Positions 1,481-7,998 of a stretch of 26,878 nt of DNA are shown piece by piece. The stretch lies in the IMG/VR virus record IMGVR_UViG_2698536476_000007. One strand, 5' to 3'. The notes below the pieces were generated by a model. The model had not been told where the DNA came from. It ran no database searches and saw nothing but the letters and a program-made list of their open reading frames with translations. A program made the translations under genes and the position numbers. The stretch comes from a virus (lineage: Duplodnaviria > Heunggongvirae > Uroviricota > Caudoviricetes). Positions within the stretch are counted from its first letter, which is position 1. Every line of letters begins with the position of its first letter.

Positions 1481-2476
1481 GTGACCGTGAGAGCACTACT
1501 GACCCCTGAAATTGCCCCGCGTATGGGGATCGTATTGTTCAGGCCAGGTTCAGAGCTGATGCCCCTGTTTATGCAGGGGCGTGTCCTGCTGGAGCCAGAG
1601 CCGGAACGTTATTCATCTTTCGCCAGTGGTGCCGTTCCGGCGGCAACACAACCGCTGGCGGATGATCCTGCCGTTCGGACCGTGTTCCGCAATGAGGCAG
1701 TGATCCGTCGTGCTGGTGGCGTGGAATGTCATGAAAGCTGGTTACTTCGTGAAAAGGGCTGTCAGTGGCCTCATTCTGACTGGCACAGCGAGAACATGAC
1801 CACAATGCGGCACGCTCCGGGAGCAATTCGTCTGTGCTGGCACTGCGATAACCAGCTGCGTGACCAGTTCACGGAACGGCTGGAATCAATGGCAACGGAT
1901 AACTGTGCCCGCTGGGTGTTGTCTGTCGTGCGTCGGGATCTCGGTTTTGATGACAGTCACGTTGTGACAATGCCGGAACTGTGCTGGTGGCTGGTTCGTA
2001 ATGATCTGGCGGATGCCTTACCGGAAAGTGCAGCCCGTAAGGCACTGAGATTACCGAAGCCTGTTGTGCCATCTGTCACCCGGGAAAGTGACCTTGTGCC
2101 TTCGGTTCCTGCCACCAGCATCATCCAGGATAAGGCGAAAAAGGTGCTGGCGCTGAAAGTGGATCCGGAGTCGCCGGAGTCTTTTATGTTACGCCCAAAA
2201 CGTCGCCGCTGGGTTAATGAAAAGTACACGCGCTGGGTTAAGACGCAGCCGTGTGCATGTTGTGGAAAGCCTGCTGATGATCCCCACCATCTGATAGGCC
2301 ACGGTCAGGGGGGAATGGGTACAAAAGCGCATGATCTCTTTGTGTTGCCTTTGTGCAGAAAGCATCACGACGAGCTGCATGCGGATACCGTGGCATTTGA
2401 AGAGAAGTATGGCTCCCAGCTGGAGTTGATATTTCGTTTTATCGATCGTGCGCTGGCAATTGGTGTGCTGGCCTGA
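1481..2476 (+). CDS. DUF968-family phage protein (YdfU-like) with C-terminal HNH-like Cys/His cluster
   Basis: C-terminal 'CACCGKPADDPHHLIGHG...LCRKHHDELH' is the conserved DUF968 Cys/His motif found in nin-region proteins of lambdoid prophages. GTG start; an alternative GTG at 1487 has a better-spaced GAGG. Confidence 0.6.
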   Translation: MTVRALLTPEIAPRMGIVLFRPGSELMPLFMQGRVLLEPEPERYSSFASGAVPAATQPLADDPAVRTVFRNEAVIRRAGGVECHESWLLREKGCQWPHSDWHSENMTTMRHAPGAIRLCWHCDNQLRDQFTERLESMATDNCARWVLSVVRRDLGFDDSHVVTMPELCWWLVRNDLADALPESAARKALRLPKPVVPSVTRESDLVPSVPATSIIQDKAKKVLALKVDPESPESFMLRPKRRRWVNEKYTRWVKTQPCACCGKPADDPHHLIGHGQGGMGTKAHDLFVLPLCRKHHDELHADTVAFEEKYGSQLELIFRFIDRALAIGVLA

Positions 2477-2493
2477 TTTTGTGGAGAAAGTTG

Positions 2494-2850
2494 ATGCGTG
2501 ATATGTATGAAGTAATGGATCGTTGGGGAGCTTGGGCTGCTTCAGACAATAGCGGAGTGGACTGGCAGCCGATAGCGGCTGGTTTCAAGGGACTTTTACC
2601 TCATGGCAAAAAGTCACGGATTCAGTGTGATGATGACGAAGGCATCATGATAGACAGTTGTGTGGCTCGGTTGAGAAGGTATAAACCAGAGGAATATGAG
2701 CTCATCATCGCCCACTTTGTTATCGGTATCTCATTACGCACTATTGCGAAGAAGAGAAAATGCTCTGATGGCACAATTAGGAAGGAACTGCAAACTGCAA
2801 TGGGGTTTGTTGACGGCTGTTTAGCAATGTTAGCTTATAGTATGGCATAA
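2494..2850 (+). CDS. Q: Late-gene antitermination protein Q (phage 82/21-type)
   Basis: 'VMDRWGAWAA...WQPIAAGFKGLLP...SRIQCDDDEG' matches the 82-type Q family (LERWGAWAA...IAAGFKGL...CCDDD). Sits immediately upstream of the lysis cassette. GGAG at 2483-2486 precedes ATG 2494. Confidence 0.75.
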   Translation: MRDMYEVMDRWGAWAASDNSGVDWQPIAAGFKGLLPHGKKSRIQCDDDEGIMIDSCVARLRRYKPEEYELIIAHFVIGISLRTIAKKRKCSDGTIRKELQTAMGFVDGCLAMLAYSMA

Positions 2851-4044
2851 AAAATAAAATAGATTTACTGCCGATTTTTCAAAAAAGACTGGGAACTGTT
2901 TATATCCAACGTAAATAAGGCCTCCATAAAACATGGCTGATGCGAGATATTTAACAGTTCTCATCCTTTTTTTAGCTTTATCAATCAAACCTGTAATGCT
3001 ACTCTTAATACTATCTGCATTATCTTTGATTTCTTTATTTTCTTCAAACTTTAAATACTTATCGAAAGCGGACTCCACTCGAGAACGTAAGTTGTCGAAT
3101 GTTTCATTGAATATCTCAATAGAAATGTAATTGACTTTTTTTATCATCCAAAGTCCTGCGATAATCAATATTGCTTCGGTTGTTTCATTAGCCTTCACTA
3201 AGCCACCAGCAGCTATTAATGCACCGGGAATAGTCAATGCTTTTGTCTGATTAGATGATATGAATTCGTTAATTTTACTCGTGAACTCAAGATTTTTCTC
3301 ATCGAGTTCGTTAAGAATTTTATTTACAGAAAACCTCTTTGTGTAAATCTCATATAGTTCATCATATTTTTTCCTGACGAGTTCAGTAGAGTTAAGCAAG
3401 TCAAAGAAATTGAACGTACCATTTGCTTTAAATACTTCGTTTATGGCTGAGCGTATAACGAGCTTGCGCTCGCTTTTGTGTAAATCATTGATTTTTATTG
3501 TGTCGAGAAGCTCCTTTATAATTTCATATTTAAGAGACGAGTTCGATAAGCGATTAATCTCGCTATATTGTAAAAAATGCGTGAGTTCGACTGTATAACT
3601 TTTGTCTTCATTGGTGAAAAATAAGACAGAGCAGTCACTGTTATGATGATCAGCAATTAATGAAAGGATATCTTTCCACATAAAGAAAATATGGATTTTT
3701 TCGATGCTTTCATTCTTAGAAGTAGGGAGTATTAACGGCGTTCCGATGATATAATTTTTCGGAAGAGCGTTTTGGGTGTTTACTCTAGACCAAAAAGACT
3801 CAACATTCTCATAAATTATAGCGTCATCCCAAGATGAAGCTTGGCGATCTAGCCAAATTTCATTATTTTCGATGCAGGTTGTTGCCTTTTTATAACCTAT
3901 AGATTGTAACAGTCTAATTATTTCAGAACTATTTACAATAACAATGCTTTCTTCAAGACTTATGACAGTGTAGTAGCCCTCAACTCTGCTTGAGGCTCCG
4001 TTAATAATCTGCGCTAATCTTGATAAGTCATCAGCAATTGTCAT
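2830..4044 (-). CDS. Hypothetical protein, 404 aa; soluble N-domain plus C-terminal hydrophobic helices; downstream gene of the AT-rich cargo operon (candidate effector)
   Basis: Uninterrupted 1.2 kb ORF in very AT-rich DNA, where long ORFs are unlikely by chance. Start ATG lies 2 nt after the upstream gene's TAA (translational coupling). Hydrophobic stretches LTIPGALIAAGGLV, AILIIAGLWMI and YLASAMFYGGLIYVGY near the C-terminus. No family recognised. Confidence 0.8.
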   Translation of the reverse strand: MTIADDLSRLAQIINGASSRVEGYYTVISLEESIVIVNSSEIIRLLQSIGYKKATTCIENNEIWLDRQASSWDDAIIYENVESFWSRVNTQNALPKNYIIGTPLILPTSKNESIEKIHIFFMWKDILSLIADHHNSDCSVLFFTNEDKSYTVELTHFLQYSEINRLSNSSLKYEIIKELLDTIKINDLHKSERKLVIRSAINEVFKANGTFNFFDLLNSTELVRKKYDELYEIYTKRFSVNKILNELDEKNLEFTSKINEFISSNQTKALTIPGALIAAGGLVKANETTEAILIIAGLWMIKKVNYISIEIFNETFDNLRSRVESAFDKYLKFEENKEIKDNADSIKSSITGLIDKAKKRMRTVKYLASAMFYGGLIYVGYKQFPVFFEKSAVNLFYFLCHTIS

Positions 4045-4046
4045 TA

Positions 4047-5222
4047 TTAGCTGTCTCTATATCTTTTGAGTTCATCATAATTTGCCTGACTCAATTTTAT
4101 CACAATTTCGCATTTGTTGTCAGTGAGAATTACAGGCTTATTTGACTTTTCGTCTCCAATAGCTCCACGCATTATTTTCAACTTAAAATTATTGTCGTTA
4201 TCTGCCACTTCAATTGTAAGCGCGCTTTCAGCTGCTTTAGGAGTTGGTTCAAATTGAGGGTCAATCTGGAAACCATTAAGATTAACAAAATCGACAAACG
4301 TTCCCTTACATTTGTGTGAATCAGTCAGGCATGAGTCAATTATTTTTGAAATATCCTCTATCTTAACGGACTTATTTCCGTGTTTATCTTTTGATTTTTT
4401 TTCCAGTAAGGATTTAACTTCATTGTCAATAGTATCACGCAGTACACGACCGAGTGAGTTTTTACTAGCAAAAATATCTATAGCACTGAATAATTGCTGA
4501 ATGCTTCTTTTATTGTCCGAATCATGTCGGCAACCTAATGAGTCTTTGAAAAAATCGCTTTTAGATTTACCTTGCAAGAAATGTACATATGAGTCACCCT
4601 TGTTTTCTGGATAACTGGCTTCGAATAAAGTTAAATCGAACATCGCAGCCTGCCGTAAGGCATCGGTATTAATTGGATTTAATCTTGTTGGGGTCAACTT
4701 ATCCGAATCAAAGTCATAGGCGCTTTGTTTATCAACCATTACGATTAGAAGTTTCCCCAAATCCTCTGGTTCGGTAGACTTATAGTGGATGAAAACAACG
4801 CTCCCCCCCTGAAGTTGGGCAACTCTCGATTCGTTATTAGCATTATGTTTAAGCTTCTCTATTATAGCTCTAGATAAATCAATGAATTCATTATTTTTAT
4901 TAATGTATTTTTTTAGGATCGTAGGAATGGATGAAGGGTTGTGATCTGAGTCTAGGAAGTTATGAAATTTGTTTTTTCGGCTAAATTTTTTCTCAATTCT
5001 GGTTATGAATTCAGATGTGACTTCATTTTTTAGATCCCAAACTTCACCTAATCGATAATCAAATGCTCTTGAATCATTTTTTTCAAGATTTGCTGTTACA
5101 GCACCAATAGGAAAGTACGATTGTTTGCCCAGCACTACAACATGAGGCGTGGCACCGCATTTATCGCAAGCTACAGTTGGGTCGTCAAGAACATTGCCAC
5201 ATTCTAAACAAGTTATATCCAT
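4047..5222 (-). CDS. Hypothetical protein, 391 aa; N-terminal CxxC-x10-CxxC zinc ribbon plus NdpA/YejK-like region; upstream gene of the cargo operon (candidate sensor/DNA binder)
   Basis: Long ORF in AT-rich DNA. N-terminus CLECGNVLDDPTVACDKCG. Central 'GGSVVFIHY...LLIVMV...NPINTDALRQAAMFDLTLFE...YVHFLQGKSKSDFF' parallels the NdpA motif series GGFVLFCHY...LLVAVL...DLTEWE...YLTFLKGRVGRKVADFF, as recalled from memory. Confidence 0.8.
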   Translation of the reverse strand: MDITCLECGNVLDDPTVACDKCGATPHVVVLGKQSYFPIGAVTANLEKNDSRAFDYRLGEVWDLKNEVTSEFITRIEKKFSRKNKFHNFLDSDHNPSSIPTILKKYINKNNEFIDLSRAIIEKLKHNANNESRVAQLQGGSVVFIHYKSTEPEDLGKLLIVMVDKQSAYDFDSDKLTPTRLNPINTDALRQAAMFDLTLFEASYPENKGDSYVHFLQGKSKSDFFKDSLGCRHDSDNKRSIQQLFSAIDIFASKNSLGRVLRDTIDNEVKSLLEKKSKDKHGNKSVKIEDISKIIDSCLTDSHKCKGTFVDFVNLNGFQIDPQFEPTPKAAESALTIEVADNDNNFKLKIMRGAIGDEKSNKPVILTDNKCEIVIKLSQANYDELKRYRDS

Positions 5223-5228
5223 TATATA

Positions 5229-5265
5229 TCCCGAATTATAAGAATGAATTTTTATGTGGCTGAAA
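5229..5265 (-). promoter_or_regulatory. Candidate promoter for the cargo operon (perfect TATAAT -10 on the - strand at 5235-5240)
   Basis: The - strand reads ...TTCAGCCACATAAAAATTCATTCT-TATAAT-TCGGGATATATA-ATG. Perfect -10 hexamer in an AT-rich, UP-like context; the -35 is weak (TTCAGC) and the leader is very short. Confidence 0.3.
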
Positions 5266-5341
5266 ATTCTATCAAAACACTAACGCGTACGCAAAAAGTA
5301 TTGTATTGTGTTAAGAGTGGTTACTTCGCCACACAGCTTAA

Positions 5342-5368
5342 ACCCGCCGTCGAGCGGGTTTTGTCGTT
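5342..5368 (+). terminator. Intrinsic terminator hairpin (ACCCGC-cgtcga-GCGGGT + TTTGTCGTTT), possibly tR'-like for a short Q-dependent leader RNA
   Basis: Perfect 6-bp GC-rich stem followed by a T-rich tract on the + strand, between the Q-proximal region and the holin gene. Confidence 0.5.
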
Positions 5369-5513
5369 TCTGGGCCTGGGGATTCGTTGGGCCTAGTCTA
5401 TCCCGCAGTTATCCATTGGCTCGGCTTCTTTGACGTTTCCGCTTCTGATTTGCGGTACATGATGTTTCCTCAATTTGCACCTGCTGTATCAGCGAGGTGA
5501 GAGATAACTACAA

Positions 5514-5840
5514 ATGCCTCATAACCCAAATACTTGGCTGGAGTTGGTCCAGAGCTGGTGGCGTGGAGACACACCGCTGGGCGCAGTGATTATGTCGATC
5601 GTTATGGCTGGCTTGCGCATTGCCTATTTTGGCGGTGGTGGTGGCTGGAAGAGAAAAACGCTCGAGATTTTGCTCTGTGGCGCTCTGACGCTGACCTTTG
5701 CATCCGCGCTTGAGTATGTCGGATGGCCTAAATCGCTTTCTGTTGCCATTGGTGGTGGCGTTGGGTTGATCGGTGTCGATGCTATTCGTGGGGCTGCAAT
5801 GAGAGTAATCGGTAACAAGTTTGGTGGCTCTAAGGAGTAA
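5514..5840 (+). CDS. S: Holin (lambda S-like, class I)
   Basis: 108 aa with hydrophobic helices; 'GAVIMSIVMAGLRIAYFGGGGGWKRKTLEILLCGALTL' resembles lambda S. Directly upstream of the R endolysin. Confidence 0.85.
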   Translation: MPHNPNTWLELVQSWWRGDTPLGAVIMSIVMAGLRIAYFGGGGGWKRKTLEILLCGALTLTFASALEYVGWPKSLSVAIGGGVGLIGVDAIRGAAMRVIGNKFGGSKE

Positions 5841-5843
5841 TTT

Positions 5844-6320
5844 ATGCAGGTACTAAATTCCCAGCGTAAAGCTTTCCTGGATATGGTGGCATGGTCAGAA
5901 GGAACGGATAACGGGCGACAACCGACACGTAACCACGGTTATGACGTTATTGTCGGTGGCGAACTCTTCACTGATTACTCCGATCACCCTCGCAAACTTG
6001 TCACGCTAAACCCGAAACTCAAATCAACAGCTGCAGGCCGTTATCAACTTCTTTCACGTTGGTGGGATGCTTACCGCAAGCAGCTTGGGCTGAAAGACTT
6101 CTCTCCCAGAAGCCAGGACTCAGTGGCATTACAGCAGATTAAAGAGCGTGGCGCTTTACCGATGATTGACCGCGGCGATATTCGTCAGGCAATCGACCGT
6201 TGCAGCAATATCTGGGCTTCACTGCCGGGCGCTGGTTATGGTCAGTTCGAGCATAAGGCTGACAGCCTGATTGCAAAATTCAAAGAAGCGGGCGGAACGG
6301 TCAGAGAGATTGAGGTATGA
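5844..6320 (+). CDS. R: Endolysin, lytic transglycosylase (lambda R)
   Basis: 158 aa, near-identical to lambda R across its length ([79 protein letters not shown]...). Confidence 0.95.
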
Positions 6321-6789: not shown

Positions 6790-7065
6790 ATGACTAAGCT
6801 TTATCACCGCATCTCAGCTTTTCTCTCTGGGTGCTGGGCGTTTATCACGTCTATTTCGTTCGTCATCTTTAGTTTCGGTAGCACAGCATGCTCGCTTAGT
6901 CGGGGTCTGTGGCGTGCTATTTCAGCACTAGCGCCGAAATTTTTACCTGAAAAGGTTGTTTGGCGAATTGTAGAGCGAATGTGTAGTGAGAGCGTTCGCG
7001 AGAAGATTAACGTATTTGGACGTCATCCTCGAAATACAGGCGCATTGTGCAGTTCGTTACTGTAG
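6790..7065 (+). CDS. Hypothetical small protein with hydrophobic N-terminal region (moron position downstream of Rz)
   Basis: CAGGAG RBS 8 nt upstream of the ATG; hydrophobic segment AFITSISFVIFSF; followed by a hairpin at 7074-7100. No family recognised. Confidence 0.4.
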   Translation: MTKLYHRISAFLSGCWAFITSISFVIFSFGSTACSLSRGLWRAISALAPKFLPEKVVWRIVERMCSESVREKINVFGRHPRNTGALCSSLL

Positions 7066-7073
7066 TCATTACA

Positions 7074-7100
7074 AAGCCCATCTTTGGGTTTGGTTTGTAA
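7074..7100 (+). terminator. Hairpin with trailing T-rich tract (possible weak terminator) downstream of the 6790-7065 ORF
   Basis: AAGCCCA-tctt-TGGGTTT stem (one G-T wobble) followed by GGTTTGTAATTT. Confidence 0.3.
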
Positions 7101-7183
7101 TTTCGCTGCTGCAATAATCACCAGAAATATGGCATTGTAATTGGTGGTCATATGTCATACCCATCAATTACAAAGGAGCAGAC

Positions 7184-7435
7184 ATGTCATCTACAAAATT
7201 AGTTAAAACTATCCTTTTCCATGGAGATAATAAATATGAAGTTTATGCAACCTCCGAGTACGCTGACGTAGATAGAATCATTCATTACAAGTTACGCTCA
7301 TGTAAAAACACAGATGGTTCAGATGGCAAGTCTGAATCTATATGGGTTGTATATAATCCTGCTGTTCAACTACCGGATGATCTGAACTACAAAAAAGTTA
7401 GCAACATAGCTCCTTATCTTGAAAAGTTACAATAA
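7184..7435 (+). CDS. Hypothetical 83-aa protein; AT-rich moron with its own RBS and terminator
   Basis: AGGAG RBS 6 nt upstream of the ATG; AT-rich codon usage unlike flanking phage genes; intrinsic terminator immediately downstream. No family recognised. Confidence 0.55.
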   Translation: MSSTKLVKTILFHGDNKYEVYATSEYADVDRIIHYKLRSCKNTDGSDGKSESIWVVYNPAVQLPDDLNYKKVSNIAPYLEKLQ

Positions 7436-7457
7436 ACTTCCTTTTCCACATGCTAAA

Positions 7458-7483
7458 AGCCTCGTATTCGCGGGGCTTTTTAT
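7458..7483 (+). terminator. Intrinsic terminator after the 7184-7435 moron
   Basis: GCCTCG-tattcg-CGGGGC stem (one G-T wobble) followed by TTTTTATT. Confidence 0.55.
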
Positions 7484-7493
7484 TGTCATTACA

Positions 7494-7519
7494 AAAGCCA
7501 CTCCCTACAGAGTGGCTTT
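7494..7519. terminator. Perfect 10-bp hairpin (AAGCCACTC-cctaca-GAGTGGCTT); possible opposite-strand or bidirectional terminator partner
   Basis: Perfect inverted repeat; on the - strand the stem is followed by TTTTGTAATG. Confidence 0.3.
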
Positions 7520-7647
7520 GATAATGGTTTATACCCTACACGGGATAACTTAACTGATATCCCTTTTAACGGATAAACGGAGCCAACAATGGCAGAGAAT
7601 GTCGGCATTATGGCAGTTAAATTTGGATAAATCGGAGATTAGTACAT

Positions 7648-7998
7648 ATGCCGCCACGAATCCCGAAAGCCTGCCGTGCTCGAGGTTGCCGTAATACCAC
7701 CACTGACCCGTCAGGCTATTGCGAAAGCCACAAAAGCGAAGGCTGGAAGCAATACAAACCTGGACAATCCCGTCATCAGCGCGGCTACGGTTCGAAGTGG
7801 GACAGTATCCGCGCGCGTGTCCTGAAGCGTGACAAAGGCCTGTGTCAGTTATGTCTGCGTTCTGGTGTGGTGCGTGAGGCGAAAACTGTTGACCACATCA
7901 TCCCTAAAGCGCATGGCGGCACTGATGCTGACAGTAATCTGCAGAGTCTGTGCTGGCCGTGTCATAAGGCGAAGACGGCCCGTGAACGGTTAAAGTGA
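7648..7998 (+). CDS. HNH endonuclease (packaging-associated, upstream of terminase)
   Basis: Cys pairs (CRARGC...C) plus 'VDHIIPKAHGGTDADSNLQSLCWPCHKAK' is the HNH motif; classic HNH-cos-TerS-TerL arrangement of HK97-like phages. Confidence 0.85.
   Translation: MPPRIPKACRARGCRNTTTDPSGYCESHKSEGWKQYKPGQSRHQRGYGSKWDSIRARVLKRDKGLCQLCLRSGVVREAKTVDHIIPKAHGGTDADSNLQSLCWPCHKAKTARERLK

Follow-up and report, generated by a model that had tools for sequence, protein, structure and literature searches.

Locus and prophage setting

By sequence, the window (the whole stretch of 26,878 nucleotides analyzed here) is a lambdoid prophage of E. coli O103:H2. Its positions 1900-6000 match NZ_CP031908.1 (1290490-1294590) at 100% identity, and 80% or more of this 4.1-kb region is present in 99 complete E. 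coli genomes. The features of the region, with the evidence for each, are as follows:

2494-2850, + strand: antiterminator Q gene, 118 aa (Pfam PF06530; distant relative of phage 21 Q; annotated by PGAP as an "antiterminator Q family protein")
2805-2850, + strand: cargo-linked 3' end of Q (DNA comparison with locus L037, co-variation of tail and cargo, GC content)
2830-2850, both strands: tail-to-tail coding overlap (sequence, open reading frame list and PGAP), of differing length among relatives
2830-4044, - strand: second gene of DS-1, DS1_2 (DS-1B), 404 aa (NCBIfam NF053869; identical to WP_000150292.1)
4047-5222, - strand: first gene of DS-1, DS1_1, 391 aa, a YejK/NA37-like nucleoid-associated anti-phage protein (NF053868, Pfam NA37)
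5248-5275, - strand: candidate promoter of the DS-1 operon, TTGATA-16-AAAAAT (9/12 in a consensus scan; at the right edge of the cassette)
5280-5339, + strand: candidate late promoter PR' and Q-loading region (conservation and position; candidate -10 hexamer TATTGT at 5304-5309)
5340-5371, + strand: intrinsic terminator, candidate tR' (terminator scan; 8-bp stem with 5 GC pairs and a U-rich tail)
5514-5840, + strand: lambda-type holin S, the first late (lysis) gene (Pfam PF05106, E 5.7e-25; PGAP)

The Q protein matched Pfam PF06530 over profile positions 1-115 of 118 (E 3.2e-47; 159.8 bits against a gathering score of 26). Its match to phage 21 Q (PDB 6p18, 6jnx) is weak (E 1.3e-3; residues 8-86 against 20-99), and the proteins differ in size, with 118 aa here and 162 aa in phage 21 Q. 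Translation likely starts at ATG 2494, with GGAG 9 nt upstream, rather than at TTG 2479. A terminator-like hairpin with a T-run is present on the + strand at 2452-2472, 20 nt ahead of the Q start and overlapping the DUF968 gene at its end, which suggests that Q expression may need read-through or antitermination of early transcripts.

Copies of the region in other genomes are not always intact. In E. coli O103 strain WL1467 (locus L001), the match to window positions 1900-6000 exceeds the query by one base, and the annotated YejK-like gene (3829-4824 of that locus) is shorter than its counterpart in the window, this copy being damaged. IS3, IS1 or IS5 insertions lie in or adjoin the region in other genomes (matches H34-H41 and H58).

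Identity of the minus-strand operon

Sequence comparison identified the minus-strand operon next to Q as DS-1, a known and experimentally validated defense system. The 404-aa protein scored 375.2 bits against the NF053869 DS1_2_antiphage equivalog (cut-off, 315), and the 391-aa protein, which has a Cys-rich stretch at its N-terminus, scored 451.4 bits against the NF053868 DS1_1 equivalog (cut-off, 330) and matched Pfam NA37 with an E value of 1.2e-23. The latter protein also has the same length and C-terminus as WP_000355468.1. In the DefensePredictor supplement, WP_000150292.1 and WP_000355468.1 constitute system D390, that is, DS-1, which was cloned in MG1655 and is marked as replicated (PMC13092281); anti-phage protection by the cloned pair was reported there (DefensePredictor; Science 2026; PMC13092281). 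The cassette in the window agrees with this reference in its two genes and their order, without differences in the cassette itself. DS1_1 precedes DS1_2 on the minus strand at a distance of 2 nt, and this order is kept in all homologous loci compared. PADLOC (2023), the library of which is older than DS-1, returned no match for either cassette protein. The DS-1 system and the presence of cargo downstream of Q as a theme are already known; the junction with Q is not discussed in the DS-1 papers and tables consulted (PMC13092281). What is new here concerns the base-pair limits of the cassette, the Q tails supplied by the cargo (in more than 20 combinations) and the terminator-less DS-1 cassette as opposed to its insulated sisters.

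An imperfect inverted repeat of 92 nt (A7...U7) occupies 2881-2972, in the 3' part of the DS-1B coding sequence; the + strand RNA of this stretch folds at -30.2 kcal/mol (z, -4.2). The repeat was considered as a terminator of Q read-through and rejected, as its conservation extends only to close relatives (L034, L088) and has vanished at 70-75% identity.

Geometry and reality of the overlap

Q (2494-2850, +) and the 404-aa open reading frame (2830-4044, -) overlap tail to tail by 21 bp at 2830-2850, according to both the sequence and the open reading frame list. The Q protein ends in GCLAMLAYSMA, with its TAA stop at 2848-2850, and the 404-aa protein ends in FYFLCHTIS, with its stop being the reverse complement of 2830-2832. 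The codons of both genes are in register across the overlap, such that the TAA stop of Q is the antisense of a Leu TTA codon in the 404-aa frame, whereas the TAA stop of the latter is the antisense of the TTA codon of Q Leu113 (2830-2832). The convergent 21-bp overlap that the earlier note had described from the letters and an open reading frame list was thus confirmed by the sequence, the open reading frame list and the PGAP annotation of the matching locus. In the identical locus L001, PGAP places Q at 2095-2451 (+) and the anti-phage protein at 2431-3645 (-), which is the same overlap. As the junction recurs at 98.6-100% identity in 105 of 5,426 complete E. coli genomes and also in 31 IMG/VR contigs, it is inherited and is not a sequencing artefact. 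Convergent genes that are fused without a spacer each read on to the first stop in the antisense frame of the other. Here, the first stop in the opposing antisense frame comes after 6 codons, and the length of the overlap is statistically unremarkable.

An accident of open reading frame calling, in which one protein really ends earlier or the 404-aa frame is merely extended into Q, is a very improbable source of the overlap. The NCBIfam DS1_2 profile does end at residue 378 of 404, and the 404-aa and 407-aa forms of the protein are separated only by a change that is synonymous in Q, both of which would fit such an accident. However, the stops are fixed by the sequence, with no earlier in-frame stop; the alignment of homologues of 404-431 aa, including those outside Q contexts, stops no more than a few residues short of the end; and Q reaches position 115 of 118 in the PF06530 profile. 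The normal length of DS-1B is approximately 404-407 aa, and the protein has 406 aa in P0021, where its 3' end does not adjoin Q. A Q C-terminus shared with related phages, combined with an earlier end of the cassette gene in homologues, had been named as the pattern that would speak for an accidental extension; this pattern was not seen, and the Q tail instead co-varies with the cargo.

Boundaries of the cassette and the cargo-linked tail of Q

The left boundary of the cassette was resolved by locus L037, which carries a different cargo. L037 has no mismatch to the window over 2336-2804 (469 bp), has 6 mismatches over 2805-2831 (78% identity), where it still encodes GFV(D/E)GC, and shows no homology from 2832 onward, i.e., at the stop codon of DS-1B. 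For other Q alleles in E. coli genomes, alignment to the window ends at 2808-2821. On the right side, homology resumes sharply at CTAACGCGTACGC (approximately 5280), and this edge is identical in at least 11 cargo classes. From these comparisons, the cassette-specific DNA is placed at approximately 2832-5279; the GC content of 2832-5279 is 0.346, as against 0.47-0.49 in the flanks. The suggestion in the earlier note that the overlap may simply mark the insertion junction holds, since cassette-specific DNA starts at 2832, in the stop codon of the 404-aa gene; alignment with a relative lacking the cassette, which had been proposed as a check and for which L037 served, places the boundary at this same position. 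The companion statement that the cassette abuts or slightly invades Q was right about the abutting, with zero spacer, and wrong about the direction, as it is the tail of Q that reads cassette DNA. These comparisons provide base-pair limits (approximately 2832-5279) for a validated defense system in its natural prophage setting.

The 3' end of Q is accordingly composite in its DNA. The diverged homologous stretch at 2805-2831 encodes GFVDGCLAM, and the cassette-specific stretch at 2832-2850 encodes the residues AYSMA and the stop; GC content is 0.37 over 2805-2850 and 0.47 in the Q body. On this sequence evidence, conserved Q ends at Leu113, and its last five codons and stop are cassette DNA, antisense to the end of DS-1B. 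Among the loci encoding a PF06530-type Q, at least 20 Q tails were found, each tied to one cargo length. The tails that follow the conserved GF(V/I/L)(D/E)G motif include CLAMLAYSMA, VVSILV, VLSML and VLRMV, and further examples are CLSFFIYYNDLSSM, ITSVIACK, CICLIEF and CISILFW. The identity of the Q body to that of the window ranges from 82 to 100% within the DS-1 class and is 99% in one non-DS-1 locus (L037); thus, Q-body identity does not track the cargo class, whereas the Q tail does. The last 5-15 residues of this Q family are in effect supplied by the adjacent cargo, and Q therefore tolerates arbitrary hydrophobic tails.

The right edge, which is extremely sharp and the same in many cargo classes, could also be expected of a self-mobile element, similar to a transposon or an integron cassette, that inserts site-specifically into the end of Q. 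Nevertheless, we give this explanation hardly any weight. The cassette lacks a transposase or integrase, with no such domain detected in it by Pfam or NCBIfam, and it has no terminal repeats at 2832 and 5279: a search for terminal inverted or direct repeats pairing these two positions found none. The left edge is graded, a recent crossover having occurred at 2805 and homology being lost at 2832, which fits homologous recombination within Q.

Cargo slot between Q and the conserved element

To place DS-1 among other cargoes, 80 viral contigs encoding the Q family of the window served as the sample. All cargoes of this Q family lie on the minus strand, convergent on Q, and in most classes the cargo ends 3-40 bp after the Q stop. 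The segments from Q to the conserved element at 5280-5371 in loci L002, L005, L007, L037, L038, L048, L056, L058, L061 and L074 contain diverse low-GC minus-strand cassettes. Matches of the slot cargoes in PADLOC include PDC-M53A, PDC-S33 and relatives of NsnA/PD-T4-2_A, all of them established or candidate defense families. The PDC-S33 (RelA/SpoT-like) cargo adjoins a 369-aa protein of no assigned family, and several cassettes pair a soluble protein of approximately 300 aa with a multi-pass membrane protein of approximately 180 aa, with no family match. The interval from Q to its probable late promoter thus serves as a slot for many minus-strand two-gene operons, most of which are unclassified, making it a good place to look for new defense systems.

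Comparable arrangements are found in well-known phages. In DLP12 of K-12, the nmpC porin gene lies on the minus strand between quuD and essD, followed by the same conserved element and terminator. In phage Stx2a_1447, a minus-strand two-gene cassette is situated between Q and the element, upstream of a methylase gene, a tRNA gene and stx2; stx itself is carried on the late strand at a position downstream of this element, whereas the cassettes lie upstream, on the opposite strand and convergent with Q. The orf49/orf50 pair of SfII (PDC-M53A-like in PADLOC) is a low-GC minus-strand two-gene operon with the same Q family and the same right junction. Sister cassettes of the SfII type end 3-40 bp past the Q stop, usually with a strong hairpin, whereas DS-1 overlaps Q; compared with the cargo slots of DLP12 and the Stx phage, DS-1 has neither a spacer nor a terminator after Q. 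The literature on quuD/essD regulation yielded nothing relevant, and the slot between Q and the late promoter is not described in the Tai paper.

The hairpins differ markedly between DS-1 and its sisters. Approximately 15 of the 21 other cargo classes have a strong GC hairpin right after Q (-11 to -20 kcal/mol) flanked by A and T runs, and these hairpins look like bidirectional terminators, as judged from their sequences. The best local hairpin at the DS-1 junction reaches only -4.5 to -5.9 kcal/mol, and a terminator scan found no intrinsic terminator between the Q and DS-1B stops.

After the lysis genes of the window, a second low-GC dip (0.36-0.38) is present at 7050-7650. It contains an 83-aa open reading frame (7184-7435, annotated as hypothetical) that may be another cargo gene.

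The conserved element at 5280-5371

The unit at 5280-5371 consists of an A-rich stretch, CTAACGCGTACGCAAAAA, a hexamer (TATTGT here) that keeps T-A-N3-T in all variants, and a conserved stretch of approximately 30 nt followed by the intrinsic terminator. The terminator hairpin and its U-run are kept across genera, with differing sequence. The element is present after the cargo in all classes and genera examined, among them DLP12, the Stx2a phage, Raoultella, Pseudescherichia and Yersinia. It occurs in approximately 2,640 of 5,426 complete E. coli genomes, including K-12 (in DLP12, upstream of essD), and across five genera, and is the sole non-coding sequence conserved with this Q family irrespective of cargo, lysis-gene type and genus. 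In the Stx2a phage, it occupies the place of the annotated post-Q terminator of SfV, which has a different Q type. An Rfam scan of 2300-5700 gave only a chance snoRNA match (E 0.28). At the adjacent right edge of the cassette, where the candidate DS-1 promoter lies, TTGnnA-like hexamers are found at the equivalent site in most other cargo classes.

Conservation and position make it reasonably likely that this unit comprises the late promoter, the Q-loading site (qut) and tR' of the PF06530-type Q. By analogy with phage 21 Q, loading would be expected at a late promoter closely trailed by a terminator. The TGAGCA repeat of the Q21 QBE is absent from 5280-5339 on inspection. If the unit is indeed PR'/tR', DS-1 would separate Q from its site of action and would not be crossed by late transcripts.

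Variation of the overlap among relatives

The length of the overlap varies among DS-1 relatives. It is 21 bp in E. coli, in a Klebsiella relative (70% identity) and in L090; 30 bp in L034, L035 and L088, where Q Leu113 is encoded by CTT instead of TTA and the DS-1 protein has 407 aa and ends in ISKHC; 33 bp in L095 (75% identity), where the Q stop is shifted; and 37 bp in L097, a Yersinia relative of 35% identity. The 30-bp form occurs in Raoultella, and the 404-aa and 407-aa forms of DS-1B differ only by a change synonymous in Q. The 40%-identical Pseudescherichia relative has no overlap, with a 20-bp gap and a hairpin instead. Its locus (L094, Pseudescherichia vulneris, 1920-5263) combines the DS-1-like pair of 40% identity and a HicAB toxin-antitoxin in one Q-to-holin slot.

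Overlap length depends only on point changes in the stop and Leu codons. The DS-1B residues encoded in the overlap vary (LCHTIS, LCQAIT, LYHILN, LSEIKW), and the remaining protein is 70-90% identical. This drift in length and the poor conservation of the residues involved make the coding overlap look like a by-product. Klebsiella and Raoultella prophages whose backbones differ have kept the zero-spacer arrangement itself at 70-87% protein identity, and its persistence down to 70% identity, together with the Yersinia overlap, could reflect selection instead of inertia.

Origin of the overlap and possible regulatory coupling

Taken with the boundary data, the most probable reading, in our view, is that the overlap represents an ordinary junction, at the left end of a cargo module that can be exchanged, and that the coding overlap is a by-product without a dedicated function. 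Conserved Q sequence ends at the TTA codon of Leu113, the reverse complement of which serves as the DS-1B stop; beyond it, the Q frame takes its final AYSMA codons and its stop from the antisense of the end of DS-1B. In the proposed model, recombination that uses the conserved Q body to the left and the conserved element to the right would swap one module for another, and the sharp edges of the cassettes may then be set by selection that keeps both Q and the late promoter functional. The overlap would persist since genes fused without a spacer are not easily separated again, and its persistence alone is no proof of selection. As a consequence that need not have been selected, DS-1 transcripts would enter Q in antisense until stopped by Rho, and early rightward Q transcripts would continue in antisense into DS-1.

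Antisense transcription across Q, from which the earlier note had derived a possible coupling by transcriptional interference or antisense RNA, is plausible because no terminator hairpin separates Q from DS-1. The RNA antisense to Q has a C/G ratio of 2.0-3.5, within the top 1-5% of the window, a composition that Rho prefers, so it is plausible from sequence that DS-1 transcripts extend into Q and that Rho ends them there. No unusual structure was seen in the minus-strand RNA over 2700-2860 (z, +1.15). In lambda, paQ is a CII-activated antisense promoter that lowers Q function (PMC2327240). RNA antisense to Q in the lysogenic state could, in a similar manner, lower Q expression here; however, paQ is a dedicated CII-activated promoter inside Q, whereas the candidate here is read-through from a defense operon promoter 2.4 kb away. 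The lack of a terminator makes such an effect more conceivable for DS-1 than for its insulated sisters, but no feature of the sequence demands it, and the junction is not conserved as a tuned element would be. If antisense Q RNA is made, the locus would represent a simple natural case of a defense cassette wired into the lysis-lysogeny circuit.

A stronger version of this idea is that the terminator-less overlap is a selected coupling, in which antisense RNA damps leaky Q expression, and with it late-gene expression, in the lysogen and transcriptional collision silences DS-1 on induction. The arrangement has several properties that would suit such a device: there is no terminator-like hairpin between Q and DS-1B, unlike in most sister cassettes; no intrinsic terminator is found on the minus strand past DS-1B until 647-632; paQ of lambda provides a precedent (PMC2327240); and the zero-spacer architecture has been kept at 70-87% identity in Klebsiella and Raoultella on different backbones. 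We nonetheless consider selected coupling unlikely. In both genes the overlap belongs to the least conserved sequence, and it drifts in length; in the 40%-identical DS-1 relative, a 20-bp gap and a hairpin take its place; the C-rich, G-poor composition of the RNA antisense to Q means that Rho may end the transcript early; and DS-1 works when cloned outside the prophage. More doubtful still is the specific scenario, drawn by analogy with paQ, in which DS-1 shed an insulating terminator, such that its transcripts would act as a paQ-like brake in the lysogen and induction would shut DS-1 off, sparing the prophage from its own abortive-infection system.
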